Part shown: positions 5,828 through 47,133 of the stretch, piece after piece | Layout: each line of letters begins with the position of its first letter | How positions within the stretch are numbered: the stretch's first letter is position 1 | IMG/VR virus record: IMGVR_UViG_2511231028_000004 | Coordinates: 1 to 64,000 of that record | DNA length: 64,000 nucleotides | From: a virus | Taxonomy: Duplodnaviria > Caudoviricetes | Reading direction: 5' to 3' (one strand) | The notes under the pieces: model-generated | The model's input: the letters and a program-made list of their open reading frames with translations, nothing else | The model's database searches: none | Told to the model about the DNA's origin: nothing | Position numbers and translations under genes: made by a program

Positions 5828-7027
5828 TTAAGGTTTGTGATCCTGAACCGAAGGTCGGTTTCCTGATTTCGATCCTGCTGCGGTCTTGCCGAGAGTGACC
5901 GTCTGCACCTCCTCCGGCGTCAGATAGGCTAGGTACATCTCGGTCGTCTTGATCGATGTATGGCCCAGCCGCTGCTGCAAAACATAGATGGACCGGCCGC
6001 TTTTCAGCCAGTTGACGGCGTGAAGGTGGCGCAGATCGTGGAACGGGAAGGGCCGAAAATCCTGATCCTGTTTTTGGGCCTGTTCGGCAACGGCCTCGAC
6101 GATGCGACCGAAGTTCGACGAGGCCTGGCGATACCGCTCCGCCCTCCGCTGTCCAAGCCGGCTCCGAGGGCCAGCCTCTGCCCGGTGCCAGAACAACGCC
6201 TTGGTCTCGATCGAGGCGGGCAGCGAACTCAGAACCTCGAATCCGAAGTCTTCTCCGGCGTCGATCAGGTCGATTACGCGCAGCTTGTTGCGCTTTCCAA
6301 TGATCGTGAGCTGCCGGCGGTCCCGATCGAGATGGGCCCGGTCGGCTTTGACGAGCTCGTCCAGGCGCGCGCCGGTCTTGAGGGCGGCCCGGATCATGCC
6401 GGCGAACAGTGCCGGGGCGCGCTCGATCACCATCTCGACGTGGGCCATCAGCGGCAGGACGATCGGGTCGCGCCGTTCCTGCAGCCGCGATCGGCGCCGG
6501 CGGCCCGGCTTCAGCCACGTGATGACAGGGTTATCGTCGCGCCAGCCCTCATCGACCATCCAGTCGCAGACGCTTGAGAGGGCCGTGAGGTCGCGTTTGA
6601 TGGTGGCTATCGATGCGGTCACCGGATGCTTACGGCCCTTCGGCACGGCCGGCACGTCGCGGCGGCTCTCGACGATGCTTCCAATCAGGGCTTTGTCGAT
6701 CTCGTCGACGTAGAGGCCTTGCAGATGCGGCGCCAGAACGTCCAGGGACGTCACATAGCGCTTGAAAGTGCTCTCGCTGATCTGCGTGGGGATGAACTTT
6801 CCCCAGCCCTGCAGCGCCTCCTCAAAGGTGCGGCGCTGGTCACCATAGCGCTGGGTGGCTACCGCGCGGTCGCGCTCCGCTTTGCGGCGGCTTCTCGCAA
6901 CTGCCGGATCGTCTGTGCGTAGAGACCATTTGACGTCGAGTCCGCCGGTTTGAATGCGGCCGTAGAGGACGCCGTCACGCCAGAAACAGCCCTTTGGAGC
7001 CTTCCGGCCTCCCTTGCCCTTTGGCAT
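5828..7027 (-). CDS. int: Tyrosine recombinase / phage integrase
   Basis: TGARLDEL (R), GKRNK, FHDLRHLHA (H-x-x-R), LGHTSIKTTEMY (H, Y). Confidence 0.96.
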   Translation of the reverse strand: MPKGKGGRKAPKGCFWRDGVLYGRIQTGGLDVKWSLRTDDPAVARSRRKAERDRAVATQRYGDQRRTFEEALQGWGKFIPTQISESTFKRYVTSLDVLAPHLQGLYVDEIDKALIGSIVESRRDVPAVPKGRKHPVTASIATIKRDLTALSSVCDWMVDEGWRDDNPVITWLKPGRRRRSRLQERRDPIVLPLMAHVEMVIERAPALFAGMIRAALKTGARLDELVKADRAHLDRDRRQLTIIGKRNKLRVIDLIDAGEDFGFEVLSSLPASIETKALFWHRAEAGPRSRLGQRRAERYRQASSNFGRIVEAVAEQAQKQDQDFRPFPFHDLRHLHAVNWLKSGRSIYVLQQRLGHTSIKTTEMYLAYLTPEEVQTVTLGKTAAGSKSGNRPSVQDHKP

Positions 7028-7475: not shown

Positions 7476-7675
7476 TGAGGCCGCTCCGAAAGGTCGTGGG
7501 GGCCGCTGGCGCGCATCATGGCGAGCATGTCGTCATGGGCGTCCTGGCGCTCTGTTGGGGTCGCGAACGGGCCGAGTGCGGCCCAGTGACCGCGATCGAC
7601 GTAGATGTCGAGCCAGTACTGGCCGATAGCCTGGCGGTGGACGTATTCGACGAGGCTGCCGAGCTTTTCGGTCAC
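7472..7675 (-). CDS. Hypothetical phage protein
   Basis: 4-bp overlaps on both sides. Confidence 0.7.
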   Translation of the reverse strand: MTEKLGSLVEYVHRQAIGQYWLDIYVDRGHWAALGPFATPTERQDAHDDMLAMMRASGPHDLSERPQ

Positions 7676-9690
7676 TCTGCTGCCTCCATGAAAAGAGGCA
7701 TGGGCGCCATCGGCCGGATGGGTCGTCGTACCTTGCGCGGGATGTAGTTCGCGCCGATCAGATCCTCGGCCTCAGGCGGGCAGACCGAGTTGCCGCACAT
7801 ATAGCCCTGCTGCTCGGCTGTAAACTTGATCTCGGTGCCGTCCTCGAGGACGCCTCGGTCGATGATGTAGTCGGACCGGAAGCCCTGCGCCGTGAAGCGC
7901 TCGCGCGCCGTCAGCATCCGCATGCCGATGTCGACGATGACGAAGGTGATGCCCTCGATCTCGACGGTGACGAACTCGCGATCGTCCCAATAGCCGTGTG
8001 CCCTGAGGAAGTCGGCGACCTTGCGGGCCTTGTCCCAATGCTCGGGACCGAACGGCGGAAGCGCTGCGGTTGCCTCGACCAGGCCGAAGCGCGGTTTGGC
8101 CGTCACCGTGTGAAGCGGGTCATCGGCACTCTGGCTCGGTGTTCCTGTGCCGTAATATTTGGCGAGGAAACCCATGATGGCAGCGTGGTGCAGTCCGCCT
8201 GATGTCGTCGTGTGCAGCGGGACGTCAGCCGGTGCACCGCGGCGGTCCGTGCCGTGCATGTTGACCATGTGAACCGCAGCGAGGGACTGCTGGCTGCCGG
8301 CGGCGGTGATGGTCGAGACCGGTTCGTCGACGGGGTGGCCGGCGTTGCCATGGCCTGTGCGGCCGTCGATGTTGTGCTGCGCCATGAAGGCTGCGACGAC
8401 GCTGAGGTTTGCACCGCCGGCGGTGAGCGTGTGGGCAGGCTTCTCGGCCTCGTTGAAGGGTTTTTGCGAGTTGCGCATCGTGGCGAGATGGACCGCGGCG
8501 ACACGGCCTTCGTTCCCACCGGCCACGATCGTAGCCAGCGGCTCATTCGCAGGTCGGGTCCGGGGATCGTGTCCCGGCTTTTCCATGTAGCGAGGGACCA
8601 TCATCGGCGCGACGATGCAGAGGTCCGGCTTTCCTGTCTGCGTGATGATCGGTTCACCGGCGCCCTTCGCCTCGGTCTGCGCCGCGCGACCGCCGCAGCC
8701 AGCCAGCACCGGCGAGACGATTGCGAGCTCGCCTCGTTTGGCTGTGGTGATGGTGCGCAGCGGCTCGTCTGCACTGTGTGTGCGCGGCGGTCCGCTATGG
8801 GTAATTGGCACGATGAAGGGCCGCGCGGCTTCGAGGACGTAACGATGCGTTCCCTTGGCGACGCGTGCCATGGTGTTCTCGACGAGCGGGCGAATGGCGC
8901 GGATGCCGTACTTCGCCTTGATCTCTTTGGCGGTGTCGAAGATCGACGGGCAGGGCAGCGACCAGTCGATGCAGTCGGCGGCCGTCTTCCATGGTGTGAG
9001 AAGTCCAGCCGCGATCTTGGCGGCGTCCTCGGCTTCGTTTGGATTGCCGCGCGTCGGTTCCGGCCAGACGATCGGCTCGCCGTCGCGGCGCATGATCATG
9101 TAGAGCCGCTTGCGGATCGTGGCGGCCTGCATCTTCCGGCCGGCGCGCCAGGCGCGGCGCTCGCGCCATTCGACGACGTAGCCGAGCGCTTCCCATGAGG
9201 CGACGAATTGCTTGAAGATGACGCCCTTCTGGATCGGGCAGCGCTTCCCTCCTTCGAGCAGCGGCGACCAGTCCTGGAACTCCTCGACGTTCTCGAGGAA
9301 GACGATGCGGGGCCGCTGCCATACCGGCAAGGCCTTGACCCAGCCGAAGCAGGCCCAGGCGAGCCCGCGGATGTTCTTGTCGCGCGGCTTGCCGCCCTTC
9401 GCCTTGCTGTGGTCCTTGCAGTCCGGCGACATCCAGAGCATGCCGACCGGCCGGCCATCGCACATGCTGATGGCGTCGATCGTGACGACGTCTTCGACGT
9501 AGTGCTCTGTCTTGGGATGGTTGATGCGGTGCATCGCCAGCGCGAACTTGTCGTGATTAACGGCGATCGTGGGCGAAAAGCCGAGAGCGGCTTCGTGGCC
9601 TTCCGACGTTCCGCCGCCGCCCGCGAAGCTATCGATCGTAATCTCGTCGAGAAGTTCAAAACCCGTCAGATCGAGGCCGGTCCTTATCAT
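7672..9690 (-). CDS. DNA (cytosine-5)-methyltransferase
   Basis: DSFAGGGG (I), SPDC (IV), LENV (VI), C-terminal RMLTARE..QGF and GNSVCP; start at ATGA overlap 9690. Confidence 0.93.
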   Translation of the reverse strand: MIRTGLDLTGFELLDEITIDSFAGGGGTSEGHEAALGFSPTIAVNHDKFALAMHRINHPKTEHYVEDVVTIDAISMCDGRPVGMLWMSPDCKDHSKAKGGKPRDKNIRGLAWACFGWVKALPVWQRPRIVFLENVEEFQDWSPLLEGGKRCPIQKGVIFKQFVASWEALGYVVEWRERRAWRAGRKMQAATIRKRLYMIMRRDGEPIVWPEPTRGNPNEAEDAAKIAAGLLTPWKTAADCIDWSLPCPSIFDTAKEIKAKYGIRAIRPLVENTMARVAKGTHRYVLEAARPFIVPITHSGPPRTHSADEPLRTITTAKRGELAIVSPVLAGCGGRAAQTEAKGAGEPIITQTGKPDLCIVAPMMVPRYMEKPGHDPRTRPANEPLATIVAGGNEGRVAAVHLATMRNSQKPFNEAEKPAHTLTAGGANLSVVAAFMAQHNIDGRTGHGNAGHPVDEPVSTITAAGSQQSLAAVHMVNMHGTDRRGAPADVPLHTTTSGGLHHAAIMGFLAKYYGTGTPSQSADDPLHTVTAKPRFGLVEATAALPPFGPEHWDKARKVADFLRAHGYWDDREFVTVEIEGITFVIVDIGMRMLTARERFTAQGFRSDYIIDRGVLEDGTEIKFTAEQQGYMCGNSVCPPEAEDLIGANYIPRKVRRPIRPMAPMPLFMEAAE

Positions 9691-9950
9691 TGACCTGCCT
9701 CGCACATCTCCATCGCCACCACATGCTCGGTCGCAACCTGCCTTGCATCAGTGACCAGCGCGTGAACCTCGAAAGGCGCGTAGCCGAATGACGCCAGCAC
9801 CATGATGGAATCGGAGTGGTCGACGAAGGCGCCGGTCTCGACAAGGCGCGAAGCCATTTCGGCGACCTTGGCGATGCGCTGGGCGCGGACGGCATCGAGG
9901 AAGAGGGAGCCGTCGATCAAGGGATGTATGGTGATGACGCTCATCTGCAT
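9687..9950 (-). CDS. Hypothetical phage protein
   Basis: Coupled to neighbours by TGATG/ATGA overlaps. Confidence 0.7.
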   Translation of the reverse strand: MQMSVITIHPLIDGSLFLDAVRAQRIAKVAEMASRLVETGAFVDHSDSIMVLASFGYAPFEVHALVTDARQVATEHVVAMEMCEAGQ

Positions 9951-10165
9951 CACGCCCAGAAGATTCGCGCGCAGTGGCAGCACACAACATCGCCGCAGGA
10001 GCCGATTGCATGGTGCCGCCCGTCCGGGCTGAGCGCGCAACGAGCGCTGGTGCCGAACGGATCCTCGATTGCGGCGATGACGTTGGCGATCTCGCGCTCG
10101 CCGACGAAACTGATGATGCTGGCAGGTCGCTCGGCGTGGCGGGCCGGTGTGCGGGCGATTTGCAT
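9950..10165 (-). CDS. Hypothetical phage protein (CxxxxCCHC)
   Basis: ORF with RBS, coupled to downstream gene. Confidence 0.6.
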   Translation of the reverse strand: MQIARTPARHAERPASIISFVGEREIANVIAAIEDPFGTSARCALSPDGRHHAIGSCGDVVCCHCARIFWA

Positions 10166-10249
10166 GGTAGTCGTCCCTCTGGCGGTTGAAGATCGCGAGG
10201 AGGGCGGCGGCGATACGCCACGTGCTGCCGCCCGGCCGCGCTGGTGAAC

Positions 10250-10708
10250 TCAAGCGAACTGGTTCCGGCTGTCGTGACGGGCATGGGCTGCGCGATACCC
10301 GCGATAGCCATTCCGCTTCGCGGCCGCGCGCTTGATGGCTTCGTCGAGCACGTCGCGTGTGGCCTGGTTGAAGAGATCAGGGTTGATGAAGCGTTCGCGC
10401 AGGCTCTTCTGCGCGGCGAAGGTTTTCGACATCGTCGCCACCAGGATGCTGCGATCGAACGCCTCGATCGTCAGCATCGCCTTCGGCACCCACAGGGCGC
10501 GGCTGTAGATTCCACAGTCGGAGACGAGCAGGGCCTTCTCCGTTTGCCCATGGCGCACCAGCACCAGGGCCGTCCTGCCGGGGCTGGTCGCCAGGACGGC
10601 CCTTCGGCCACAGCCGCGAGTTGCTATCCCCGCGGTGAAGGTGTCGATGGAATGGGCGATGTTACGCATGACGCTACTTTCCTTGCGCTTGTGATGAAGC
10701 TTGATCAT
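10250..10708 (-). CDS. Hypothetical phage protein
   Basis: Leftward early operon, ATGA overlap. Confidence 0.65.
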   Translation of the reverse strand: MIKLHHKRKESSVMRNIAHSIDTFTAGIATRGCGRRAVLATSPGRTALVLVRHGQTEKALLVSDCGIYSRALWVPKAMLTIEAFDRSILVATMSKTFAAQKSLRERFINPDLFNQATRDVLDEAIKRAAAKRNGYRGYRAAHARHDSRNQFA

Positions 10709-10920
10709 GCGACCTCCAAGAGGTCGCGGCGCGCATGAAAGCCCGAAAGCTTGCAGGCGAGATCATGCAACGCTTGGGATTTGTCTTGATGCTTGGTGAC
10801 GCACGCTGTCGTGTATCGATCGGGGCGCGCCTCGTAATAGTCAGCCTGTGACTGGCGTCGGCTGATCGCCATGTCGAGGGCTTCGAGGAGCAGCTGAAGT
10901 TCGGCGACGGTCAGGGTCAT
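10705..10920 (-). CDS. Hypothetical phage protein
   Basis: ATGA overlaps. Confidence 0.65.
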   Translation of the reverse strand: MTLTVAELQLLLEALDMAISRRQSQADYYEARPDRYTTACVTKHQDKSQALHDLACKLSGFHARRDLLEVA

Positions 10921-11405
10921 GCCGCCTCGTCCTGCAAAGCCGGCAGCGACCGCAGCTCGGCCGACGCGAGTAGCCAGTTAATGTGCAGCGCCTCGAAAAT
11001 GGCGGGCTCAGACGCAGCGGCGCCGCGCCGGAAGGCGCTGAGCACTTCCTGCTCGATCGACGCGATGGTTTCGCGGGTTTCTTGATAGCGGCGCTGAGCG
11101 GCGCGCTGCGCGATGTCGGCCAGCCGGCATTTGTCGATCAGGTTGTCGCGCTGGACGACGGCCCAAATTTGATCCCAGATCGCCGATTGCGCCTTCGACG
11201 TCCGATCGAGCGCGCGGTGTTCGTCGCGGCGGGTATCTTTTTTGGCCGTGACGGGATTTGAGTGGATGACGTCCTCGGGCTGGCCGTGTCGATCAAGCCA
11301 GACGTGGAAACGGCGATCGCCGATCGTCCAGTGAATCGTCGGCTGCCCGCCGATCCCGCCGGTATGGACGTGGATGTCCTCGATCTTCGGCTTGGCGGAC
11401 GGCAT
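10917..11405 (-). CDS. Hypothetical phage protein, first gene of leftward early operon
   Basis: RBS GGGAG, downstream of operator/promoter block. Confidence 0.7.
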   Translation of the reverse strand: MPSAKPKIEDIHVHTGGIGGQPTIHWTIGDRRFHVWLDRHGQPEDVIHSNPVTAKKDTRRDEHRALDRTSKAQSAIWDQIWAVVQRDNLIDKCRLADIAQRAAQRRYQETRETIASIEQEVLSAFRRGAAASEPAIFEALHINWLLASAELRSLPALQDEAA

Positions 11406-11534: not shown

Positions 11535-11840
11535 TTAGGCCCGCAGGCGCTGTTTCTGAAGGATCGCTTCCTGGGCTTTGGGCGAGAGCTTCTTGAGCGC
11601 GTCCAGCTCCGCCTTTCGCGGGAGCGGACGGTAGAAGTCGTTGATCGTGACCTTCAGGTGTTCGGAAATCCGCAGCAAATAAAGCACGTTAACGTTGGGC
11701 TTCCGGTTGGCGATGATGTTGGAAACATAGCCTTGGCTGCATCCCGCGATCTTGGCCGCCTCCGTCACGTCCAACTCGAAAAAGTCGAGCCACTGGCCGA
11801 GAAACATCTGCGGAAGGTCTTCGTCATCATGCTTGCCCAT
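11535..11840 (-). CDS. cI: Phage repressor, XRE HTH (101 aa, no S24 peptidase domain)
   Basis: LDVTEAAKIAGCSQGYVSNIIANRKPN..LLRISEHL; divergent from cro. Confidence 0.85.
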   Translation of the reverse strand: MGKHDDEDLPQMFLGQWLDFFELDVTEAAKIAGCSQGYVSNIIANRKPNVNVLYLLRISEHLKVTINDFYRPLPRKAELDALKKLSPKAQEAILQKQRLRA

Positions 11841-11874
11841 GAGCCATTTTAGGATGCTCGGCACCGGCGCCGAC

Positions 11875-11924
11875 GTTTCCCGGAGAAATATTGCGGCTTG
11901 ACTGGAATCATTTCCGGGGGAAAT
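11875..11924. promoter_or_regulatory. OR-like operator pair and PR-like promoter
   Basis: GTTTC-CCGGA-GAAAT (11875-11889), ATTTC-CGGGG-GAAAT (11910-11924); TTGACT -35 between them. Confidence 0.75.
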
Positions 11925-11934
11925 ACTCTCACCC

Positions 11935-12150
11935 ATGTCTGATTCGCACCCGATGCTCCGCTGGGCGGCCGAGAACGGCAAAACCGTCAAGGAATTGGCG
12001 GCCGCGGCGGGCTGTTCGGACTCGCACATGCGAAACATATTCGCGGGCCGCAAGGAAGCGTCTCTTCGGATGGCTGTGCGTCTGAGCGAGTTCTCGGGTG
12101 GGGTGGTGCCGGCTGATGCCTTCTTGCGACCCGAAGGAGCCCGCGCATGA
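11935..12150 (+). CDS. cro: Cro-like HTH protein
   Basis: TVKELAAAAGCSDSHMRNIFAGRKEASLRMAVRL; divergent from cI. Confidence 0.85.
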   Translation: MSDSHPMLRWAAENGKTVKELAAAAGCSDSHMRNIFAGRKEASLRMAVRLSEFSGGVVPADAFLRPEGARA

Positions 12151-13165: not shown

Positions 13166-13242
13166 TGCAGGGTGGAGCAGCCCGGTAGCTCGCAAGGCTC
13201 ATAACCTTGAGGCCGTCAGTTCGAATCTGACCCCTGCAACCA
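13166..13242 (+). tRNA. tRNA-Met(CAT), initiator-like scaffold
   Basis: TGCAGGG/CCCTGCA acceptor, GAGC/GCTC D stem, CAAGG-CTCATAA-CCTTG, GTCAG-TTCGAAT-CTGAC, ACCA end; 77 nt. Confidence 0.92.
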
Positions 13243-16018: not shown

Positions 16019-16632
16019 GCCCGCAAGCCCAGCCGCAGGCACAGGCCTATCCCCTGAATTGGCCGTCCGGCTTCCCGCGCTGGAAGCACGGCCGCGGCGC
16101 CGGCACATTCAAGACCAACTTCGAGACGGCGCTTCGCAACGTCAAGAAGAGCCTCGAGCTGTTCGCCAAGGACAGCGGCAAGAAGATCGAAAATCCGATT
16201 CTGTCGAGCAACATCGACTTCAACCCGCTAACCCACAACACCGGCACCCGCCCGGCTGATCCCGGCGTCGCGGTCTGGTTTGCCTGGGACGGTCTTCAGG
16301 TCTGCATCGCGGTCGACCGCTATGACAGCCCGGCGGCGAATCTGCAGGCAATCCACCACATCATCGAAGCCCGCCGCGTTGAGCTGCGCCACGGCACGCT
16401 CGCGCTGGTGCGCGCGACCTTCTCCGGCTTCCAGGCGCTGCCGGCGCCGAAGGGCAAGCACTGGCGGGATATTCTGGAGATCGGCCATGGCGTGCTCGTC
16501 ACCAAGGGCGCGATCGAGGGCAACTACAAGCGCCTGGCGCAGGCCTATCACCCCGACCGCGAAGGCGGATCGATCGACAAGATGTCCGAGCTCAACGCCG
16601 CGCGCGATGCGGCCATCGCGGAGATCGGGTGA
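16015..16632 (+). CDS. J-domain (DnaJ-like) phage protein
   Basis: C-terminal YKRLAQAYHPDREGGSIDKMSELNAA with HPD. Confidence 0.88.
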   Translation: MSPQAQPQAQAYPLNWPSGFPRWKHGRGAGTFKTNFETALRNVKKSLELFAKDSGKKIENPILSSNIDFNPLTHNTGTRPADPGVAVWFAWDGLQVCIAVDRYDSPAANLQAIHHIIEARRVELRHGTLALVRATFSGFQALPAPKGKHWRDILEIGHGVLVTKGAIEGNYKRLAQAYHPDREGGSIDKMSELNAARDAAIAEIG

Positions 16633-16844
16633 TGCGCCAGGATCCCGACGAAGTCGCCCCGCTGGTCGACGCCCGCCTCGCCGAAGCGCTGCGGCAGGTC
16701 GGCCAGAGCCCGCTCGGCATGCCCGCAACCGTCGATACCTTCCGCGCCATGCTCGATCGCGCGGGGCTGGCTCTGGTGCTCAAGCACAATCCCGATTTTC
16801 GTCATTCCGGCCTGGAGCCGGTGAACATGGAGCATGACACATGA
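16629..16844 (+). CDS. Hypothetical phage protein
   Basis: Coupled between J-domain gene and DGR target. Confidence 0.65.
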   Translation: MMRQDPDEVAPLVDARLAEALRQVGQSPLGMPATVDTFRAMLDRAGLALVLKHNPDFRHSGLEPVNMEHDT

Positions 16845-17734
16845 ACGCAACTGCGAAGATTGAGGACGCCACACCGCTGCTCGCCAAGATCGACCCGGCG
16901 GCGCCGGTGCTCAAGGTCGAGGGCCTTGGCCGGTTGCAGATCAAGGCCGGCACGTTCTTCAACGGCGGCGGTTTCTCGGCCGACACCGAGGTGAAGATCA
17001 CCTCGCTCGAGCCCGGGACCGACTATGTGGTGCGGATCTCGGGCGACGGCCCGGTCGCCGTGCCCTATGCCAATCGAGGCGATGATCCGTTCATCGGTGG
17101 CTTTCACTTTGCACCAGGCGGCAATGCCGAGGCGCGCAAGGGCGGCGACACCGTGCCGGCGATCAACCCGTACTCGCTCTGGGATCACAATTTCCGCCCC
17201 GCGTGCCTGGACCCGCGCGGCATGGTGCTGGTCGAAGCGCCCGGCCATCGCTTCTGGTGCGATATCTACCTGACCGGCGCCGAGCATTTGGAGAACGGCA
17301 CCAGCGCCTTCGACGCGCTGATCGCCGATGGCCGCGATTGCCCGACCGATCCGGCCACCGGGAGGCGGTTCAAGCGCTTCGACTACGCCGCGGCCTGCGC
17401 CGTGATGAAGCACCACGGCAAGCAGCTGCTGTCGTTCGAAGAGTTCGCCGCCGCAGCATTCGGCGTCACCGAGCGCACCGCGACGAACAGCGATCCGGTG
17501 CGAACCAACCTCGACGCCCCGCGCACCAGCAAGTTCGGCCTGATGCAGGCGGCCGGCAACATGTGGGTGTGGGGCCACGATGGCGATCCCGACGAGCCGC
17601 GCGCTTCGATCCTCGGCGGGTCCTGGTGGGTCGAGGGCGACGCGGGCTCGCGCCTCGCGGGCCTCGGCGACTGGGCGGACGACTCGGGCGAGAGCATCGG
17701 CGCCCGCGGCCGCAGTGACCACCTGCAAACCTGA
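16841..17734 (+). CDS. mtd: DGR target protein, Mtd-like CLec fold
   Basis: GGFHFAPGGNA, INPYSLWDHNFRPACLDPRGM, FWCDIYL, HGKQL, TSKFGLMQAAGNMWVWG, GGSW..GARGRSDHL, matching BPP-1 Mtd as recalled; VR at 3' end. Confidence 0.92.
   Translation: MNATAKIEDATPLLAKIDPAAPVLKVEGLGRLQIKAGTFFNGGGFSADTEVKITSLEPGTDYVVRISGDGPVAVPYANRGDDPFIGGFHFAPGGNAEARKGGDTVPAINPYSLWDHNFRPACLDPRGMVLVEAPGHRFWCDIYLTGAEHLENGTSAFDALIADGRDCPTDPATGRRFKRFDYAAACAVMKHHGKQLLSFEEFAAAAFGVTERTATNSDPVRTNLDAPRTSKFGLMQAAGNMWVWGHDGDPDEPRASILGGSWWVEGDAGSRLAGLGDWADDSGESIGARGRSDHLQT
17596..17719 (+). repeat. DGR variable repeat (VR) including GC-only IMH run 17698-17713
   Basis: 124-bp copy of 18206..18329; 12 mismatches, all at TR adenines. 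Confidence 0.97.
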
Positions 17735-17737
17735 TCC

Positions 17738-17757
17738 CGCGTCGCGACAGCGACGCG
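17738..17757 (+). promoter_or_regulatory. DGR target-recognition hairpin
   Basis: CGCGTCGC-GACA-GCGACGCG: 8-bp stem with GRNA loop just after the target stop codon. Confidence 0.88.
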
Positions 17758-17781
17758 TCTCCTCGAGGTGAAGCGGATTCG

Positions 17782-18201
17782 ATGATCGTCAGGGACGACA
17801 ATTCGGCGACGGAAGCCCTGGCGATCGTCGAGAAGTACGAGGCTTTCGTGACCTATCTCTATCCGATCCTGCAAAACAGTCCGCGCAAGCATGGCGTCCT
17901 CAGGGACACCGTGCTTGCCCAGATGTTCACGCCGATCGGAGGTCTCTACCACGCGGCGAAGTCGCGGCAGATCTCGAGGCTGTTTGCGATCGATGCCGAG
18001 TTCGCCACGCTGCGCGCGCTGCTGCGTTTCCTGGCGCGCGGCGAGATCAAGATCCTGACGCCGCATCAGCATGTCACCGCACTCGCGCTCCTGGCGCAGC
18101 CGGGCGGCATGCTGAACGCATGGCAGAAGAAGCTTGCGGCATCGGGCACGAACAGGGTTCCGCACGCCGCCGGCGTGCGGAAGGGGGAGGCGGGGCAATG
18201 A
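17782..18201 (+). CDS. avd: DGR accessory variability determinant
   Basis: Basic four-helix protein between target and TR; IVEKYEAFVTYLY, IDAEFATLRALLRF, GGMLNAW. Confidence 0.9.
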   Translation: MIVRDDNSATEALAIVEKYEAFVTYLYPILQNSPRKHGVLRDTVLAQMFTPIGGLYHAAKSRQISRLFAIDAEFATLRALLRFLARGEIKILTPHQHVTALALLAQPGGMLNAWQKKLAASGTNRVPHAAGVRKGEAGQ

Positions 18202-18205
18202 TGTC

Positions 18206-18329
18206 GCCGCGCGCTTCGATCCTCGGCGGGTCCTGGTGGAACGAGGGCAACGCGGGCTCGCGCCACGCGAACCTCGACAACTGGGCGGACAACTCGAACG
18301 AGAACATCGGCGCCCGCGGCCGCAGTGAC
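18206..18329 (+). repeat. DGR template repeat (TR)
   Basis: Contains 7 in-frame AAC codons and 23 adenines; lies between avd and RT. Confidence 0.97.
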
Positions 18330-18524
18330 GACGGCTCCGTGACTATCGCTCGGCACAGGCCACGGCCTCGCCGGCCGGTCACAGCACAACTGTGGTCAGC
18401 TCGACTCTCCTGCTTCGGCAAACACACTGCGCGGTCCGGCAGAGCGGGGCGTAGCGGCGGTTCAGCGCAGAACTGCCGTCGAGACCCGCGGCCGGCTTCA
18501 GCTGCAATTGGAATGGGGCTCGCA

Positions 18525-19523
18525 ATGACGCGACGCTACCGCAACCTCATCGGCAAGATCACCTCGCCCCGCAACATGGAGGCGGCGCTTCGCCTGACCG
18601 CCGCCGGCAAGCGGCTGACGCCTGACTATCTCGACTTCAAGGAATTCTCCGCGCTCAACCTCGCCGACCTCGGCCGGGACATGGCGAGCGGTCGTTATCG
18701 GGCCGGTGCGCCGCACGAATTCTTCATTCTCGACCCCAAGCGCCGGCTGATCCAGGCGCTGCCGTTCCGGGACCGGATCGCCCAGCAGGCGCTCTGCCTG
18801 GTCATCGGCCCGATCTTCGATGCTGCCATGCTGCCGCGCGCCTATGCCTGCCGGACCGGCAAGGGCACTCATGCCGGCGTCGTCCAGTTGCAAAGCGATC
18901 TGCGGCGGGAAGCGCGCGGCGGCGAGCTCCACTTCCTCAAGACCGACTTTTCGCGCTACTTCGCCTCGATCGAGCGGGGCGTGCTGTGGCGGCTCATCGA
19001 GGCGAAGATCTCCTGCCGGGCGACGCTTGAGCTGATCGAGGCAATGGTGCCTCGGACGGGAACGGGACTGCCGATCGGCAGCCTGACCTCGCAAATTTTC
19101 GCCAACGTCTACGCCGGCGCCACGCTCGACCGTCATTTGCAGCAGCATCTCGGCGAACGGCTCTGGTACCGCTACATGGACGATCTCGTCGTGCTCGGCC
19201 GCGAACCTGCGCATTTGCGCAGGTTGAAGGATGAGATCGAATCCTACGCCGCGCGCGAGCTGGGCCTGCGCTTCTCCAAATGGCAGGTCTCCAGCGTCTC
19301 CCGCGGCATCAACTTCCTCGGCTACCGGATCTGGGCCAACCACAAGCTCTTGCGCCGAGACAGCGTCATCCGCGCCCGCCGCACCATCGCGGCCCTTCGA
19401 GCCCGCGGCGATGACGAGCGCCTGCGCGAATTCCTGGCCGCGTGGCTTGGTCACGCCAGCTGGGCCGACAGCGGCAATCTGATCAGGAGCCTCGGGTTGC
19501 CACAACAACGGGAGAACCGGTGA
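18525..19523 (+). CDS. DGR reverse transcriptase
   Basis: FRDRIAQQAL, GKGTHAG, FLKTDFSRYF, GLPIGSLTSQ, RYMDD, INFLGY. Confidence 0.96.
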   Translation: MTRRYRNLIGKITSPRNMEAALRLTAAGKRLTPDYLDFKEFSALNLADLGRDMASGRYRAGAPHEFFILDPKRRLIQALPFRDRIAQQALCLVIGPIFDAAMLPRAYACRTGKGTHAGVVQLQSDLRREARGGELHFLKTDFSRYFASIERGVLWRLIEAKISCRATLELIEAMVPRTGTGLPIGSLTSQIFANVYAGATLDRHLQQHLGERLWYRYMDDLVVLGREPAHLRRLKDEIESYAARELGLRFSKWQVSSVSRGINFLGYRIWANHKLLRRDSVIRARRTIAALRARGDDERLREFLAAWLGHASWADSGNLIRSLGLPQQRENR

Positions 19524-20845
19524 TGGCCGATCGGTCGGCAATCGAATGGACGGATGCCAGTTGGAATCCGATCCGCGCCCGCGTCATGGAGATCCAGAAC
19601 GACGGCTCCGGTAGAGAGCGCATCGGATGGCACTGCGAGCACGTCAGCGACGGTTGCCGCAACTGTTATGCGGAGGGCTTCAACCGGAGACTTGGCACTG
19701 GCCGGGACTTTAAACCGGGGGAGATGTTTCGTGAGGAACACAAAGGCTTCAACAACGGCGAGGTGAAGCTGTTCCTCGATGAGCAGATGTTGACCCAGCC
19801 GCTTCGCTGGAAGAAGCCTCGCAAGATCTTCGTTTGCTCAATGACGGACGCCTTCGCGGACTTCGTCACCGACGAGATGCTCGACAAGATGTTCGCCGTC
19901 ATGGCGCTGTGCCCGCAGCATACGTTCCAGGTGCTGACGAAGCGCGCGAAGCGGATGCGGGCATATATGGAACGGCTGTTCGGCTCGAAGGTCGCGCCGC
20001 GAGGCATTGCCTGTTCGCCGTGGAGCGCGCTGCTAAACCGCGCCGAACGAAGCTGGATGGTGGCTAACCCGAACTACATGACCGACATCCGGCCGTTACT
20101 GCTTGCGGGCTTGCAGGGCCGCACGCTTCCTTCCGGGCCCCTCCCGAACGCCTGGCTCGGCATCTCGGCCGAGCGGCAGCAGGAAGCAAATGAGCGGATT
20201 CCGGAGCTGCAGAAGACGCCGGCTGCGGTCCGCTTCGTCTCGCTTGAGCCGCTGCTGGGCCCGATCGACCTCGAGGACATCGTTCGCCACGGCGACGGGT
20301 GCGAGGACCACCACAGCGCGCTCGAATGCGACGTCGCCATCGAGGACGACCAGGAATTCCACGGCGCCGTACTCGACTGGGTCATTGTCGGTGGCGAGAG
20401 CGGCAACCGCGCTCGCCCGATGCACCCGGATTGGGTGCGGGGCCTTCGCGATCAGTGCGACCGAAACGACACGGCGTTTTTCTTCAAGCAGTGGGGCGAA
20501 TGGGGTATGCCGACCGATGATCTCGGCAACCTCGACTGGCCCTATCATCCCGATCACGATCGCACGCACTGGTTTGACCGTCGCAGCTGTGTTCGACCGA
20601 TCGAGAGCGGATGGTCAGATAAGTACCAATGTGGTGGCGGAGCGTATCCGCCGCCGCCATTCGATCTTTTCCAGACGCCCGACTACCTCGACCAGGTCGC
20701 GCGCTGTCCGCAGTGCGGCTGCGGTGAAGCCAAGAAGTGTCAGGGAAACGCCGCTCGCGCGGCAGTCACATGGGTAGGCAAGAAAAAGGCCGGTCGCCTC
20801 CTCGACGGAGCCGAGCATAACGCATTCCCGAAGGTGCCGGGATGA
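19523..20845 (+). CDS. Phage Gp37/Gp68 (DUF5131) family protein
   Basis: SAIEWTDASWNP, C-x6-C-x2-C (CEHVSDGCRNC), FVCSMTD, FQVLTKR, WVIVGGESG, FFFKQWG. Confidence 0.9.
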   Translation: MADRSAIEWTDASWNPIRARVMEIQNDGSGRERIGWHCEHVSDGCRNCYAEGFNRRLGTGRDFKPGEMFREEHKGFNNGEVKLFLDEQMLTQPLRWKKPRKIFVCSMTDAFADFVTDEMLDKMFAVMALCPQHTFQVLTKRAKRMRAYMERLFGSKVAPRGIACSPWSALLNRAERSWMVANPNYMTDIRPLLLAGLQGRTLPSGPLPNAWLGISAERQQEANERIPELQKTPAAVRFVSLEPLLGPIDLEDIVRHGDGCEDHHSALECDVAIEDDQEFHGAVLDWVIVGGESGNRARPMHPDWVRGLRDQCDRNDTAFFFKQWGEWGMPTDDLGNLDWPYHPDHDRTHWFDRRSCVRPIESGWSDKYQCGGGAYPPPPFDLFQTPDYLDQVARCPQCGCGEAKKCQGNAARAAVTWVGKKKAGRLLDGAEHNAFPKVPG

Positions 20846-22077
20846 GCGACCTTCGCCGCATCGATCCAAAACCGTTCCTGCCGCGCATCCCGAAGGGCCC
20901 GAAGCCCGACGTCGGCGAGCGTCCGGAACTGCAATGGCTCAAGATCGACCGCTTGCGCATCGATCCGCGCTATCAGCGCGAGATCGGCCGACGCGGTGCC
21001 GACAACATCGTCGCGATCGTGCCGAAGTTCAAATGGGCCAAGTTCACGCCCGTGGTGGTGGCGCCGATCGGCGAGGGCCTGTTCGCCGTCATCGACGGCC
21101 AGCATCGCGCCACGGCCGCCGCTGCGTGCGAATTCGAGAGCGTGCCCTGCGTCATCATCCAGGTCGACCAGGCCGATCAGGCCGATGCCTTCGTCGCCAT
21201 CAACGCCAACGTCACTGCGATGTCGCCGCTGCAACTGCATGCTGCGCGCCTGGCTGCCGGCGATAAAATCGCCGACGAACTGACGCAAGCCTGCGAGGCG
21301 GCCGGCGTCAGCATCTGCCGCTATCCGGTGCCGGCGAACAAGATGAAGCCGGGCGAGACGCTGGCGGTCGGCATGCTGCAATCGGCGCTGGCCAAATATG
21401 GACGCGACGTCCTGGTCGCCGCGCTGTCCTGCGTCACCAAGACCCGCAAGGGCAATCCCGGCATGATCCGCAAGGCGATTGTGCAGGCGTTGTGCTCCGT
21501 GATCGAGGCTGACCGGGAATGGCTCGGCGATCTGCCGCGACTGATTTTCGCCATGCAGACCTTCGACTTCGCCGCGCAGTTCAACCGCGCGTCGGCGGCG
21601 GCGATCGAAAGCGGCGAGGGCGTTGCCGCGCTGCTGATCGACGCGATCGCCGCCCATCTTGATGGCAAGTTCGAAGCTTCAGTCCCTGCGGAGGCGGCCG
21701 AAGAGGTCACGACGCCTCGCAGGGACGGAAAGGCTCCGGTGCGGGCGGCAAAATCAGCGCCGATCGAGCCTCCGGTGGCCAAGGCTCCCGGCCGTCCATC
21801 CGCCACCGGTCCGGTCACGATCGGGCGCGACTTCATCAGCCGCGGCGGCCGGCGCATCGAGGTCGCTCCGCGCGCTGCGCTGCTCTTCGCCGCCGTGCAC
21901 AAGGCGATGCCGAATTGCGTCGGTGACGAATGGCTGGTCTCTAAACTCTGGACGGTACGTCCGCCGAATGCCGGCGATCTGATCGACCAGATCGTCCGCA
22001 ATCTCGACCTTGCCAGTCTCGGGCTCGAGATCCGCACCCACCGCGGCGTCGGCCGCCAACTGGTCGAGGTGGCATGA
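20842..22077 (+). CDS. ParB-N-like domain protein with C-terminal winged helix
   Basis: IDPRYQR, VIDGQHR; C-terminal RTHRGVGRQL (OmpR-like wing). Confidence 0.75.
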   Translation: MSDLRRIDPKPFLPRIPKGPKPDVGERPELQWLKIDRLRIDPRYQREIGRRGADNIVAIVPKFKWAKFTPVVVAPIGEGLFAVIDGQHRATAAAACEFESVPCVIIQVDQADQADAFVAINANVTAMSPLQLHAARLAAGDKIADELTQACEAAGVSICRYPVPANKMKPGETLAVGMLQSALAKYGRDVLVAALSCVTKTRKGNPGMIRKAIVQALCSVIEADREWLGDLPRLIFAMQTFDFAAQFNRASAAAIESGEGVAALLIDAIAAHLDGKFEASVPAEAAEEVTTPRRDGKAPVRAAKSAPIEPPVAKAPGRPSATGPVTIGRDFISRGGRRIEVAPRAALLFAAVHKAMPNCVGDEWLVSKLWTVRPPNAGDLIDQIVRNLDLASLGLEIRTHRGVGRQLVEVA

Positions 22078-23150
22078 CGCTGCTCGCCGCCTACGATCGC
22101 GCATGCCGGTCTCTCGCCGAGGTCAAGGACGCCGGCGAAGTCGTGCAGATCCACGACCTTTTCGAGCACGTCAAGCTCTATGCCAGACAGATCCAGGACA
22201 AGGCGCTGCTCGAAGAAGCCGTCGTTGCGCAGATGCGAGCCGACAGGCGCCTGGGCGAGATCATCGGTGCGCTCAAGGAAGCCGGCAGGATCTCGGACGG
22301 TCGCAAGCCGAAAGACGATGGCTCCGACCGCGTCACCCTGAAGGACATCGGCGTCAAGGACTGGAAGCTCTCGTCACGGGCCCAGAAGGCGGCCGCGCTG
22401 TCCCCGGACGCATTCAAGCAGATCGAGGAGGCCGCGCGCCAGAAGGTTCGCGGCGGCGGCGCCATCCTGGTCGATCCGATTCAATCGGCTGCGAAGGAGG
22501 CCGAGATCGCCGGCCGCCGCGCCGCGCATGCGGCGCGCGCCGAGACCGGCGGCTGTGTCGCGGACCTGGAAGCTCTTGTCGCATCGGGCTTCCGCGCAGG
22601 CTTCGTCGGCATGGACCCCCAATGGCATTTCAAGACCCGTTCCGATGCAGGCGAGGGGCGGTCCGCCGGAATCCACTACAAGACGGAAGAGATCGAGAAG
22701 ATCAAGAATATTCCAGTCGGCGCGATAGGCGCGGACGATTCGGCGATCGGCATGTGGACGGTCGACTGGTGCCTCGAGGCCGCCTTCGCGCTGATGCGCC
22801 ATTACGGCTATGAGCCCGTCACCAAGCTCTACACCTGGGCCAAGACCAATAACGATGGCAAGTTGCTCGCCCACGATGATTCCAGCTGGCACCTCGGCAT
22901 GGGGTATTGGACGCGTGCCAACCCGGAGGATTGCTGGCTCGGAATCCGCGGCAAACCGAAGCGGCTCTATGCCGACGTCCGTCAGCTGATCGTTGCGCCT
23001 TTGATGGAGCACTCTCGCAAGCCCGATGAGTGGCTCGCGCGCTCCGAGCGCCTGGTCGAGGGCCCCTATATCGAATTGAACGCGCGGCGTCCTCGGAAAG
23101 GCTGGTTCAGCTGGGGGGACGAGCTCGAATGGACGGGGGTGGCAGCATGA
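22074..23150 (+). CDS. MT-A70 family N6-adenine methyltransferase
   Basis: MDPQW, LYTWAK, GMGYWTRANPEDC, HSRKPDE, YIELNAR..GWFSWGDE. Confidence 0.9.
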   Translation: MTLLAAYDRACRSLAEVKDAGEVVQIHDLFEHVKLYARQIQDKALLEEAVVAQMRADRRLGEIIGALKEAGRISDGRKPKDDGSDRVTLKDIGVKDWKLSSRAQKAAALSPDAFKQIEEAARQKVRGGGAILVDPIQSAAKEAEIAGRRAAHAARAETGGCVADLEALVASGFRAGFVGMDPQWHFKTRSDAGEGRSAGIHYKTEEIEKIKNIPVGAIGADDSAIGMWTVDWCLEAAFALMRHYGYEPVTKLYTWAKTNNDGKLLAHDDSSWHLGMGYWTRANPEDCWLGIRGKPKRLYADVRQLIVAPLMEHSRKPDEWLARSERLVEGPYIELNARRPRKGWFSWGDELEWTGVAA

Positions 23151-29020: not shown

Positions 29021-30267
29021 TGGCGCGCATCTCCGAGGACGAACTCGACGACATCCGGGCGCGCAACCCGATCGCCGATATCGCGATGGGCTACACCAAG
29101 CTGCGTCGCGTCGGCGGCCGGCTGGTCGGCCCGTGTCCGATCTGCGGCGGTCGGGCGAGTTCGCAGCGTTTCGAAGTGATCGAAAAGGATGGCAACTGGG
29201 TATGTGCCGTGTGTCCAGATGGCGGCGACGTCATCAGGCTGGTCGAGAAGGTCGAGGGCTGCGACTTCCGCGCCGCGATCGAGAAGCTCGGCGGCCGCAC
29301 GGCGATCGACGCGGCCCGCGCCAAGGAACTTTTCGAGGAACGCGAGCGCAAGCGCATGGCGCGGGAAAAGACGTCGGCCGACTATCGGGAGGCCGAGCGC
29401 AAGCGGCTGCACCGGACGTGGAAGCAGACGCTGCCGATTCATGACACGATCGCGGCCCGCTACCTCGAGGGGCGAGGCCTGCAATTGCCGGAACGCTGTC
29501 CGGGCCTTCGCTTCGCGCCGGCGATACCCTACTGGCACGGCGAGACCGTCGACGAGCACGGCCGCAAAGCGGGCCCGCGCAAGATCCACGAAGGCCCGGC
29601 GATGGTCGGGGCCTTCATCCGGCCGGACGGCAAGTTCGGCGGGCTGCATCTGACCTGGCTTCGCGAATTCCCTGCACACGTAGGTTCGGCCGCCACACTG
29701 CAGGGCGCATCTCCTCAGGGTTCCGGCCATGAGGAGCGACCATCCTTTACCAAAGCCGAGATCCTCGACCCCGACACCGGCGAGATCCTCAACGCCAAGA
29801 AAATGCGCGGCTCCAAGACCGGCGCGTACATCGCCATCGTGATGCACGACGCGCCGAAGCGCCTGGTGATCGGCGAAGGCATCGAGACCGTGCTCTCGGT
29901 CTGGACCGCGATGCACCAGGCCGGACGTCCGGTAGACGGCATGGCCTTCTGGGCCGCCGGCGACCTCGGCAATCTCGCCGGCCGGGCGAACAGGACGATC
30001 AACCACCCGACCTTGAAGCGGCCGAACGGCCAGTCCCAGAAGGTGCCGGATCGATTCCCCGATCTCGACGATCCCGGCCTGTCGATTCCGGATTCCGTCG
30101 AGGAACTGATCCTGCTCGGCGATGGCGACAGCGAAGCCGTGCTGACCGAATACGCCATGGAACGCGCAGCGCGACGCTACGCACGGGTAGGGCGCGTGAT
30201 CAGGATTGCGTTCGCGCCGGCGGGACTGGATTTCAACGATTTGCTCAAGGCTGAGGTGGCGGCTTGA
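29020..30267 (+). CDS. CHC2 zinc-finger / Toprim primase
   Basis: GPCPICGG..WVCAVC..GGDVI; IGEGIET; LLGDGD; DFND. Confidence 0.88.
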   Translation: MARISEDELDDIRARNPIADIAMGYTKLRRVGGRLVGPCPICGGRASSQRFEVIEKDGNWVCAVCPDGGDVIRLVEKVEGCDFRAAIEKLGGRTAIDAARAKELFEERERKRMAREKTSADYREAERKRLHRTWKQTLPIHDTIAARYLEGRGLQLPERCPGLRFAPAIPYWHGETVDEHGRKAGPRKIHEGPAMVGAFIRPDGKFGGLHLTWLREFPAHVGSAATLQGASPQGSGHEERPSFTKAEILDPDTGEILNAKKMRGSKTGAYIAIVMHDAPKRLVIGEGIETVLSVWTAMHQAGRPVDGMAFWAAGDLGNLAGRANRTINHPTLKRPNGQSQKVPDRFPDLDDPGLSIPDSVEELILLGDGDSEAVLTEYAMERAARRYARVGRVIRIAFAPAGLDFNDLLKAEVAA

Positions 30268-31004
30268 CCAAGACATCCCGTTACGCCGGAATTGGTGGCC
30301 ACCATTCCAACCGTCCGCAGACGGTCGAGTGGCTGACTCCGCCATCGATCATCGCCGCGCTTGGCCCGTTCGATCTCGATCCCTGTGCGCCTGTCGACCA
30401 GCCGTATCCAACGGCCGCGCGCACCTTCACGCGACGGGAAAACGGTTTGTTGCAGCGCTGGGAAGGGCGCGTGCGGCTCAATCCGCCCTATACCAACGGT
30501 GAAATCGAGAAGTGGCTCGGTCGTATGGGCGAGCACGGCTGCGGCTCGGCGCTGATTTTCGCGCGCACCGAGACGGAGGCATTCTTTCGGCACGTCTGGG
30601 AGCGAGCATCCGCGCTGCTGTTCATGCGCGGGCGGATCAACTTCCACCTGCCGGACGGACGTCGCGCGGACGGTAACGCCGGCGCGCCGACGGTGTTGTG
30701 CGCCTACGGCATGCATGACGCCGACGTGCTCGCCGCGTGTGAGATCGATGGCCAATTCGTTCCGCTCCGCTTTCCGCGTTCTGTTCTGGTCGCTGTGCTC
30801 GCCGATGCGACCTGGATGGAGATCGTGCGCGAGGCAGTTGCCTCCGCCGGCGCTGACGGGCCCGTGCGCGTCGCGGATATCTGGGACGTGGTCCGCACGG
30901 ACCCCAAAGCCGCAGGCAAGGAACACGCTCGCGCAAAGGTTCGACAGGTTTTGCAGCGCGGCGCCGGCATGAGCATCGGCCGCGATCAGTGGATTCCAGC
31001 ATGA
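30264..31004 (+). CDS. Phage N6-adenine DNA methyltransferase with C-terminal winged helix
   Basis: WLTP..FDLDPCA, LNPPY, ARTET, RGRINF. Confidence 0.88.
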   Translation: MTKTSRYAGIGGHHSNRPQTVEWLTPPSIIAALGPFDLDPCAPVDQPYPTAARTFTRRENGLLQRWEGRVRLNPPYTNGEIEKWLGRMGEHGCGSALIFARTETEAFFRHVWERASALLFMRGRINFHLPDGRRADGNAGAPTVLCAYGMHDADVLAACEIDGQFVPLRFPRSVLVAVLADATWMEIVREAVASAGADGPVRVADIWDVVRTDPKAAGKEHARAKVRQVLQRGAGMSIGRDQWIPA

Positions 31005-31888
31005 TGAGTGGGATCACCCGTCCGCCCGTGCGCTGGCATGGCGCAAAGTTCCTGATGTCGCGCCAGATCCTGCCGCATCTGCCGTCGCACCGGCTCTATA
31101 CCGAGGTCTATGGGGGGGGCGCCGGCGTGTTGCTCCATAAGCCCCGCTCGCATGCCGAGGTCTATAACGACCTCGACGAGGACATCGTCAACCTGTTCCG
31201 CGTGTTGCAGGACACGAGCGCCGCGGCGCGGCTGATCGAGCTGCTGCGCCTGACGCCGTTCGCGCGGGCGGAATTCGAGCTGGCCTATGAATGGTCGCCG
31301 GAGCCGGTCGAGCGCGCGCGCCGGCTAGTCATCCGCTCGTTCATGGGGTTCGGCAGCAATGCGCATTCCTCGACGCAGCGCGGCCATCAATCGACCGGCT
31401 TTCGCTCCAACTCCAACCGCAGCGGCACCACGCCCGCGCACGATTGGGCCAATTTGCCGGAGGCCTATCCGGCGATCGTCGCGCGCTTTCGGGGTGTCGT
31501 GATCGAGCATCGCGACGCGGTCGAGGTGCTCCAGCGCCACGACGGCGAGCGCGCGCTGCACTACGTCGATCCGCCCTACGTCCACGACACGCGCTCGATG
31601 TTCAAGGGCGGCAAGTCTGCCTACAAGCACGAAATGGACCTGGCGGCCCATAAATGCCTGCTCGGCGTGCTGCGCGGCCTCAAGGGCATGGTGGTGCTGT
31701 CCGGCTATGCACACCCGCTCTATGACGCCGCGCTCGACGACTGGCGCCGCATCGAATTCGAGGCCTATGCCGACGGAGCTCGGCCGCGCATTGAAGTCCT
31801 CTGGATCAATCCGTCAGCTGCCGCTGCGCTCGATCGCGAGCATGCCGGCATTGGCGTGACGCCGCTGTTTTGCGGAGGCGCCGCTTGA
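31001..31888 (+). CDS. dam: DNA adenine methylase (Dam/D12 class)
   Basis: WHGAK, YTEVYGGGAGV, EVYNDL, HYVDPPY. Confidence 0.92.
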   Translation: MMSGITRPPVRWHGAKFLMSRQILPHLPSHRLYTEVYGGGAGVLLHKPRSHAEVYNDLDEDIVNLFRVLQDTSAAARLIELLRLTPFARAEFELAYEWSPEPVERARRLVIRSFMGFGSNAHSSTQRGHQSTGFRSNSNRSGTTPAHDWANLPEAYPAIVARFRGVVIEHRDAVEVLQRHDGERALHYVDPPYVHDTRSMFKGGKSAYKHEMDLAAHKCLLGVLRGLKGMVVLSGYAHPLYDAALDDWRRIEFEAYADGARPRIEVLWINPSAAAALDREHAGIGVTPLFCGGAA

Positions 31889-39001: not shown

Positions 39002-40384
39002 ATGGGAATCCTCAACCGCATGACCTCCGACCAGCGCTATCCGGGCGCTGCGAGGGTTTCCAATCCTGGCCGCACGCTCGCCGGCGTCGCGATCACGCCG
39101 GATTCGGCAATGATGCTGTCGGCTGTCTGGGCCGCCTTCCGCTATCTGTCGCAGACCGTCGCGGTGCTGCCCTGGCACGTCAAGAAGGACGGCAAGACCG
39201 GCCCGGAGATCCAGTCGTCGCACGGCGTCGACTATCTGTTGTGGAAGCGGCCGAGCAAGGAATGGTCGTCCTTTCAGTTTCGCGAGACGCTGACGCATTG
39301 GGCGTTGCGCTGGGGCAACGGCTATGCCGAGATCGAGCAGGATCAGCTCGGCCGCCCCTTCGCCATGTGGCCGATCCATCCGGAGCGCGTGCGGGTCTGT
39401 CGCGCAACCGACCATGAAGTCGACGCGTACGGCGATCCGATCGAGCCGGGCGATCTCTATTACGAGATCGACCAGCGCGGTACGACGATGGGTGGGGCGA
39501 CCATCCTCGCGGCGAAGAACATGTTCCACATTCGCGGATTCGGCGAAGGACCGGTCGGCGTCAACGTGATTGCATATGCCGCCCAGTCGCTGGGCTGGGC
39601 GCGTGCCGCGCAATTGTTCGGCGCGGCCTTCTTCGGCAACGGCATGAATCCTGCCGGTGTCGTCATCAACAAGAAGCCGTTGAAGCCGGATGGGCTGAAG
39701 CGCCAGAAGGCTGAGTTCGATCAGCTCTACAAAGGGCCGAACAACGCCAACCGGACCGCATTCCTGGACAATGAAGCCGACTGGAAGCCGATCGGCTTCA
39801 ATGCCCAGAACTCGCAGCTGATCGAGGTGCACCAGTTCCTGATCGAGGAGCAGTGTCGGTGGACCGGCGCACCGCCGCACAAGGTCATGCACCTGCTGCG
39901 GGCGACGTTCACCAACATCGAATCCCAGGGCATCGAAGTCGTCGTCGACAGCATCTCGCCTTGGGTGAAGCGCTTCGAGGATGAGGCCGAGTTCAAGCTG
40001 TTCGGCCAGAACCGCCAGAAGCTCTACACCAAGATCGACATGCGCGCCCTGATGCGCGGCGACATGGCGGCGCGCATCGCATACTACAAGGGTATGACGT
40101 CGATCGGCGCCTATTCGCCGAACCGGGTGCTCGAGCTCGAGGACGAGAACACGCTCGGCCCCGAGGGTGACATCCACACCATGCAGGGTCAGAACGTCAC
40201 GTTGAAGCAGATCGCAGAGGGCAAGGTTGAGACCGCGCCTGGCGCGCCGCCGGCGCCGACCGAGAGCGACGACGCCGAGCCGGCCACGCCGCCAGAAGTC
40301 GGTGAGGACGAAGAGACCCAAGCGCGTATCGCCCGACGGCTTTACGCGATCGAGCAGCTGATGGGCGAGCCGGCACATGTCTAA
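39002..40384 (+). CDS. Portal protein (HK97 family)
   Basis: [40 protein letters not shown]. Confidence 0.95.
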
Positions 40385-45143: not shown

Positions 45144-45683
45144 GTGATCGACCCGTCTGCGCAAATCCACCGGCTTGCGCTGGTTGAGGATTCCGAGATC
45201 GGTCCGCGGAGCCGCGTCTGGCAGTTCGCCAGCGTGATCCGGGGGACCGTTCTCGGCGCCGACTGCAACGTCGCATCCTGCGCGACGCTCGACGGGCCCG
45301 TCTTCGGCGACCGCTGTATCATTTCGCAGGGCGCTGCGATGGGACCCGGGTTTCGGTTCGGCAGCGACATCTTCGTCGGGCCGAACGTCACGATCTGCAA
45401 TGACCGCTGGCCGCGTGTGAGCAAGTCCGGATTCGACGCAGAGGCGTTCCGGCGCGGCGACTTCACCGTAGTGGTGAAGGATGGCGCCACGATCGGGGCG
45501 AACGCCGTGGTGTTGCCGGGCGTGATCATCGGCAAGCGGGTCATGGTCGCCGCCGGCGCGGTGGTCGATCGCGATATTCCGGACGACCACCTGTTCCGGC
45601 GCGACGGCCGGATAACACCTTTCAACCCGCGACGCAGTCCGCAGCGCATGCGCATCGTGCTGATGCGGCAGGAGGTGGCGTAA
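45144..45683 (+). CDS. Hexapeptide-repeat sugar N-acetyltransferase (FdtC/WbpD-like)
   Basis: IGPRSRVWQFA, VGPNVTICND..PR, GATIGANAVVLPGVIIG..MVAAGAVV. Confidence 0.88.
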   Translation: MIDPSAQIHRLALVEDSEIGPRSRVWQFASVIRGTVLGADCNVASCATLDGPVFGDRCIISQGAAMGPGFRFGSDIFVGPNVTICNDRWPRVSKSGFDAEAFRRGDFTVVVKDGATIGANAVVLPGVIIGKRVMVAAGAVVDRDIPDDHLFRRDGRITPFNPRRSPQRMRIVLMRQEVA

Positions 45684-47123: not shown

Positions 47124-47133
47124 GATTGGTCGC

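Follow-up and report, generated by a model that had tools for sequence, protein, structure and literature searches.

The diversity-generating retroelement (DGR) of the prophage analyzed here is located in an early operon and varies a homolog of the major tropism determinant (Mtd) that lacks the N-terminal beta-prism. As judged by comparison of this target with its relatives, the protein likely acts outside the virion; its role is probably to bind something in the infected cell and not to choose the host.

The window, namely the whole stretch of 64,000 nucleotides, was an apparently complete lambda-like prophage according to its gene annotation. The closest named homologs in the homolog search were from Bradyrhizobium, and the prophage can be assigned to a Bradyrhizobium-like soil bacterium. 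An integrase gene is located at 5828-7027, and divergent HTH genes, cI-like on the minus strand and cro-like on the plus strand (11535-12150), head the operon holding the DGR. The DGR lies on the cro side, downstream of cro (11935) and upstream of the genes for primases (29020 and 31885), a NusG-type antiterminator (34878) and terminase (36861). The capsid gene is found at 42222, and tail-fibre-like genes (57773 and 59747) are 40 kb from the DGR. These coordinates agreed with a previous sequence-only reading, which had placed the DGR between cro and the replication genes, upstream of the late control region and about 40 kb from the tail-fibre genes. Promoter and terminator scans of the window gave chance-level results, except for one site before cro.

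The early operon also contains a tRNA gene with a CAT anticodon (13166-13242, + strand). Four DNA methyltransferase genes (Dcm-like, MT-A70, Dam-like and D12) were found in the early region, at 7672-9690, 22074-23150, 30264-31004 and 31001-31888; in these phages such enzymes are in any case commonly carried in the early region. A 322-aa collagen-like protein composed of 117-nt repeats is encoded between the portal and Clp-protease genes (40377-41345, + strand), an unusual position for a fibre-like or decoration protein. An accessory block in the head-tail region (45144-48792, + strand), possibly serving virion modification, encodes a hexapeptide transferase, an MptE-like protein and a 552-aa Ser/Thr/Asn/Gly-rich protein, the last of which had no family match. 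Past the tail fibres, a long ORF (61983-64000, + strand) that is hydrophobic and has an atypical codon usage is probably a membrane-protein moron.

All parts of a complete DGR, as already recognized from the sequence, were confirmed on the plus strand. The target gene (16841..17734), encoding 297 aa, has a start overlapping the stop of a 70-aa early gene (16632..16844) in an ATGA motif. The VR (17596..17719) forms the C-terminal end of the target ORF, with a G/C-only run of 16 nt (IMH, 17698..17713) at its 3' end. A hairpin/cruciform of 8 bp with a GACA loop of the GRNA type (17738..17757) is situated 3 nt past the target stop, and fits the GRNA consensus required for homing in BPP-1 (PMC3240598). 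The accessory gene avd (17782..18201, 139 aa; PF22296, E 2e-25) is followed by the TR (18206..18329), separated from the VR by 610 nt, and by an intact RT gene (18525..19523, 332 aa; RVT_1, E 1e-16) with YMDD at residue 217 and an IGxxxSQ motif. The start of the next gene, encoding a DUF5131 protein (19523..20845), overlaps the RT stop, and the overlapping starts and stops at both ends of the cassette would leave no room for a promoter of the DGR's own. The DUF5131 protein, encoded by a common early gene among these phages, matched two PADLOC models of candidate defence proteins, PDC-M41B and PDC-M30B (E about 1e-62).

The VR differed from the TR at 12 positions, all of which were adenines in the TR (12 of 23 adenines altered; 10 to G and 2 to T), and the chance of such an adenine-only pattern, calculated by hand, was below 2e-9. 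The 23 adenines are mostly within AAC, GAC and GAG codons, giving the TR a coding capacity of approximately 1e12 protein variants. By every feature tested, the cassette is a diversity-generating retroelement and mechanistically ordinary. The search for extra VRs suggested earlier was run over both the window and the 7.8-Mb genome: no second VR was detected in the window by an adenine-tolerant scan (best non-self match 56/103), nor in the genome by blastn and protein search. The sequence-only reading that the phage possesses its own fibre and tailspike without VR copies was thus right as to the VRs, while the product of the gene at 59747 matched tail-fibre families and no separate tailspike match was obtained.

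The target aligned to residues 58-378 of Mtd (E 7e-48; 38-39% identity), and the domain search gave a match to mtd_2nd without one to Mtd_N. The AlphaFold model of the target (pLDDT 89, pTM 0.88) was built on a deeper alignment, residues 238-297 having been unreliable in the first model, and corresponded to Mtd 42-380 with a Z score of 37.5 and rmsd of 4.3 over 291 aligned residues. By this model the target belongs to the Mtd family, with a beta-sandwich and a domain of the C-type-lectin (CLec) class bearing the VR at the C-terminus. It carries no signal peptide, as had been noted, and PADLOC gave no match for it. The beta-prism of Mtd, which we take to span approximately residues 1-48, is absent because the alignments begin only at Mtd residues 42-58; this start, along with the lack of a PF18454 match, bore out the earlier proposal that the target begins at the second domain of Mtd. 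There is no tail-type N-terminal extension on the target, as an in-frame stop just upstream bounds the ORF and rules out a longer start. A split beta-prism encoded by the upstream 70-aa gene was also considered and rejected, as this gene had no Pfam match and upstream genes were not conserved across the related loci. In a second loss, which the sequence-only reading had not pointed out, the region of Mtd around residues 313-335, the beta2-beta3 loop, is replaced in the target by an acidic DGDPD hairpin 18 residues shorter. This loop assembles in the Mtd trimer, where Tyr322 and Tyr333 brace the neighbouring binding site (PMC2408619), and its loss removes the equivalents of both residues. With the beta-prism and the loop both lost, both trimer-forming ends of Mtd are altered, and the modeled target is probably no longer an Mtd-type trimer.

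The homolog search collected 915 proteins, the best 120 of which were almost all about 300 aa. Approximately 215 loci were fetched, their genes called, the neighbours clustered and the main clusters annotated, and the tree was rooted on Mtd. The target fell into one clade (support 0.99) of 173 distinct proteins from 121 loci, counted after merging identical proteins and with loci that are not fully independent. The RTs of the clade were likewise monophyletic (88 versus 24 in the outgroup). The named hosts were almost all Alphaproteobacteria, with Bradyrhizobium, Afipia, Mesorhizobium and Shinella as cultured carriers; one such carrier, Bradyrhizobium sp. (GCA_014844175.1), shows an identical order of genes. 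No close member was present in the cultured phages of the GenBank phage set, 0 of 90 same-genus genomes matched, and scans with single-protein patterns did not pick up the family. The beta2-beta3 loop was 13-15 residues long in all 173 clade members and at least 30 in 59 of 60 outgroup proteins, the remaining one having a short loop. The median N-terminal extension was 0 in the clade versus 45-100 residues in the outgroup, and no clade member had a tail-type N-terminal fusion. Apparent N-terminal fusions of other kinds (ProQ/FinO in P0113, ParB-like in P0121, and others) each occurred once, and several retained an internal Met where the target usually starts. They were interpreted as products of read-through or frameshift that join the target to an adjacent early gene, and were given no weight as Rosetta-stone evidence. 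One clade target (P0123; L018:4051-5271, minus strand), whose C-terminus runs into an HTH domain, is probably a broken or fused copy. Two or three targets were present in 51 loci (42%), the paralogs showing a median identity of 56%, and in the pairs checked both matched one TR. Among three tandem targets in L101 (8037-10900), two share identical scaffolds with 12 VR differences, and by sequence this pair is a recent duplication already diversified.

The position of the target in the early region was common to the clade. Early markers (cI, cII-like, MT-A70, Dcm, DUF5131, sliding clamp, integrase and primase) were found within 9 kb of 144 of the 148 well-flanked clade members versus 2 of 42 Mtd-like outgroup members, whereas late markers (a BPP-1-type holin or tail gene) were near none of the 148 and near 23 of the 42. 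The targets occupied either of the divergent early operons, 79 leftward and 37 rightward, and the loci L018, L098 and L176 had one target in each. In the 17 records with a portal match, the target was on the opposite strand in 8 and on the same strand 8-23 kb upstream in 9, one of which assumes a circularly permuted record. No VR-bearing tail gene was detected in 32 viral records, where only clade-type targets and the TR matched; completeness was 90% or more for 17 of these records. The genes upstream of the targets belonged to 85 families in 117 cases with no conserved partner gene, so that the neighbourhood names no ligand.

These results bear on an alternative in which the target serves the virion as an accessory adhesin or decoration protein, being produced early and incorporated into heads or tails when these are assembled. 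The target does derive from a tail-tip protein and keeps its beta-sandwich, and PHROG classes the family as 'tail'. Moreover, about 20 of the 64 Mtd homologs outside the clade were without the beta-prism, having little or no N-terminal extension, and the short ones checked were located after the major head gene, between the terminase and portal genes, after the portal gene, or after a tail fibre gene. Four of them, with complete DGRs in head or connector positions (L184:9911-10921, L129:9785-10822, L122:~9870-10936 and L133:9965-10990), may be hypervariable capsid-decoration proteins. The role of the beta-prism as the anchor of Mtd is only presumed (PMC10743442). Given this and the short homologs in structural modules, absence of the beta-prism alone is compatible with virion attachment. 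However, none of the 173 clade members had one of the tail or holin markers as a neighbour, the target and the portal gene are in many cases on opposite strands, the cassette is common to phages with unrelated tail fibres, and the trimer loop lost in the clade is retained in its long form in the short structural-module homologs. The scaffold composition is also shifted: in GC-matched loci, S/T/N/G accounted for 0.26 in the clade versus 0.34 in the outgroup, and D/E/K/R for 0.21 versus 0.14, a change that is, in terms of sequence, from tail-like toward soluble-protein-like. Attachment to the virion was thus considered improbable. The earlier proposal of a non-virion early binder gained from the clade-wide early location, the opposite-strand cases, the loop loss, the composition and the dispensability of the cassette, while its argument from the beta-prism was weaker than stated; the case for action outside the virion is made by position, strand, loop loss and composition taken together.

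The variable face of the target is acid-biased. GAC and GAG codons made up 30% of the variable TR positions in the clade versus 3% in the outgroup, and the net charge at variable VR residues was -2.7 versus -1.2, a contrast to which GC pressure and shared TR descent could contribute in part and which they inflate. Such an acidic face suggests a basic ligand surface, for example that of a nucleic-acid-binding protein.

Five close relatives have the flanking genes without the cassette, and in L221 the 70-aa gene and the DUF5131 gene are directly joined, forming a clean empty site; the cassette is therefore an accessory module of 2.7 kb. Such clean empty sites, the many insertion contexts and the scattered distribution (a match in 12 of 401 family genomes) would also be expected if the cassette were a near-neutral passenger spread between early regions through recombination. 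This seems very improbable, as comparison with the closest DGR-bearing relative gave a dN/dS of 0.24 for the target scaffold, which by this measure is under purifying selection, and 0.09 for the RT. The retention of the diverged paralogs likewise counts against a passenger, nor is retrohoming known to mobilize the cassette of a DGR itself. At AAC codons, Cys was strongly depleted (6 seen versus 36 expected under an independence null), Ile was also under-represented, and Ser, Leu and Phe were over-represented, a skew that is a rough sign of selection at the protein level. Three pairs of targets with 0-2 scaffold differences each showed 9-20 differing sites in the last 150 nt.

We propose that a standard adenine-mutagenic DGR, together with its target, left a virion module and entered the early operons that are under repressor control in temperate phages of Alphaproteobacteria. 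Upon induction or infection, the operon would be transcribed from the cro-side promoter, and the target, Avd, TR-RNA and RT would be produced together, before and during DNA replication, so that progeny phages would carry new VR alleles. The target would be a soluble cytoplasmic protein whose variable acid-biased face binds a host protein differing between hosts, most likely a defence or DNA-acting protein, and would thereby provide an evolvable counter-defence binder. The probability of this explanation as a whole, a relocated DGR serving an early soluble binder of a host protein, was put at roughly 0.5. As a single mechanism, counter-defence or host-protein capture is the best candidate, with about even odds, and counter-defence is its most plausible form. 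Two further points weigh against the explanation: the beta-sandwich retained by the clade is a fold shared with receptor-binding proteins, and the sites of Mtd bind at micromolar strength in dependence on avidity (PMC2408619), an aid that a free target would lack. A stronger version remains tentative, namely that a receptor-binding protein was re-purposed as an intracellular antibody-like counter-defence library, in which between one and three acidic binders with a lectin fold, produced as infection begins, are rewritten by a single RT, and selection favours variants able to neutralise whichever defence proteins a new host has.

The fast-changing ligand might instead be supplied by competing phages, the target binding proteins of superinfecting phages or satellites or tuning lysis-lysogeny, possibly with expression from the prophage. 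In favour of this, the cI/integrase side holds two-thirds of the placed targets, some 1.5-2.5 kb from cI; nevertheless, the target was never directly behind cI, targets are found in either early operon, and the one studied here belongs to the cro-side operon, whose repression is expected in a lysogen, making a role in phage-phage conflict rather unlikely. Release at lysis, after which the target would act extracellularly as a soluble receptor blocker or decoy, would suit the ancestral ligand class of cell-surface receptors and make a signal peptide unnecessary. The released product would be only weakly linked to the genome encoding its VR allele, resulting in inefficient selection on variants, and early timing would be unnecessary, so that little probability was assigned to this route.

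The general assumption about DGRs in phages is that they diversify virion proteins used in attachment to the host, and members of this family receive the label 'tail protein' or 'major tropism determinant' from annotation tools. In the clade, the textbook DGR target has itself been remodelled, and more than 100 loci retain it in early operons. DGR mutagenesis is thereby separated from the switching of tropism, and an evolvable binder acting inside the cell is suggested. Tractable cultured hosts and DGR-less sister phages as natural controls render the role of non-structural DGR targets directly testable, and the compact, possibly monomeric CLec scaffold is of interest for binder engineering.

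Published surveys treat viral DGR targets, those of the Mtd class especially, as tail proteins (PMC8144416; PMC5758913). Mtd-class targets of category 'a' (Wu et al. 2018, PMC5758913), the two-Mtd DGR of Lagaffe_CP (PMC11792537) and small tgt2 proteins (PMC10743442) are Mtd-like or small CLec targets of prophages, some of them paired; in the available text of these papers they are interpreted as tail or receptor-binding proteins, and an early-operon clade of truncated Mtd is not described. No paper on such a clade was found in the literature searched, the coverage of which left out most subscription journals. With regard to DNA-mimic anti-defence proteins such as Ocr and acidic Acrs, the acid bias of the variable face is the one feature measured, and no homology is claimed. 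The BPP-1 DGR (mtd-avd-TR-brt; Mtd, PDB 1YU0-1YU4) shares with the present one the gene order, adenine-specific mutagenesis, G/C run, 8-bp GRNA hairpin, Avd, and the beta-sandwich and CLec fold of the target. In BPP-1, however, mtd is located after the tail gene bbp9 and before the lysis genes, and Mtd has both the beta-prism and the beta2-beta3 trimer loop. Judged from its sequence, the target described here thus lacks three of the features by which a tropism determinant of the BPP-1 type is defined, namely the N-terminal beta-prism, the trimer loop and the location in a tail or late module; its TR seeds acidic residues, and its relatives often have two or three targets. A non-structural target of a phage DGR has a precedent in the Quimbyvirus phages of Bacteroides, the distal DGR target of which was proposed to have a role in phage-host conflict (Benler et al. 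2021, PMC8008677). That target is likewise found outside the structural module, where it is encoded on the opposite strand close to methyltransferases. The DGR in question, however, varies a tail-side gene as well, the distal target being its second, whereas here no target is on the tail side, the whole cassette is early, and the diversified protein is derived from Mtd.
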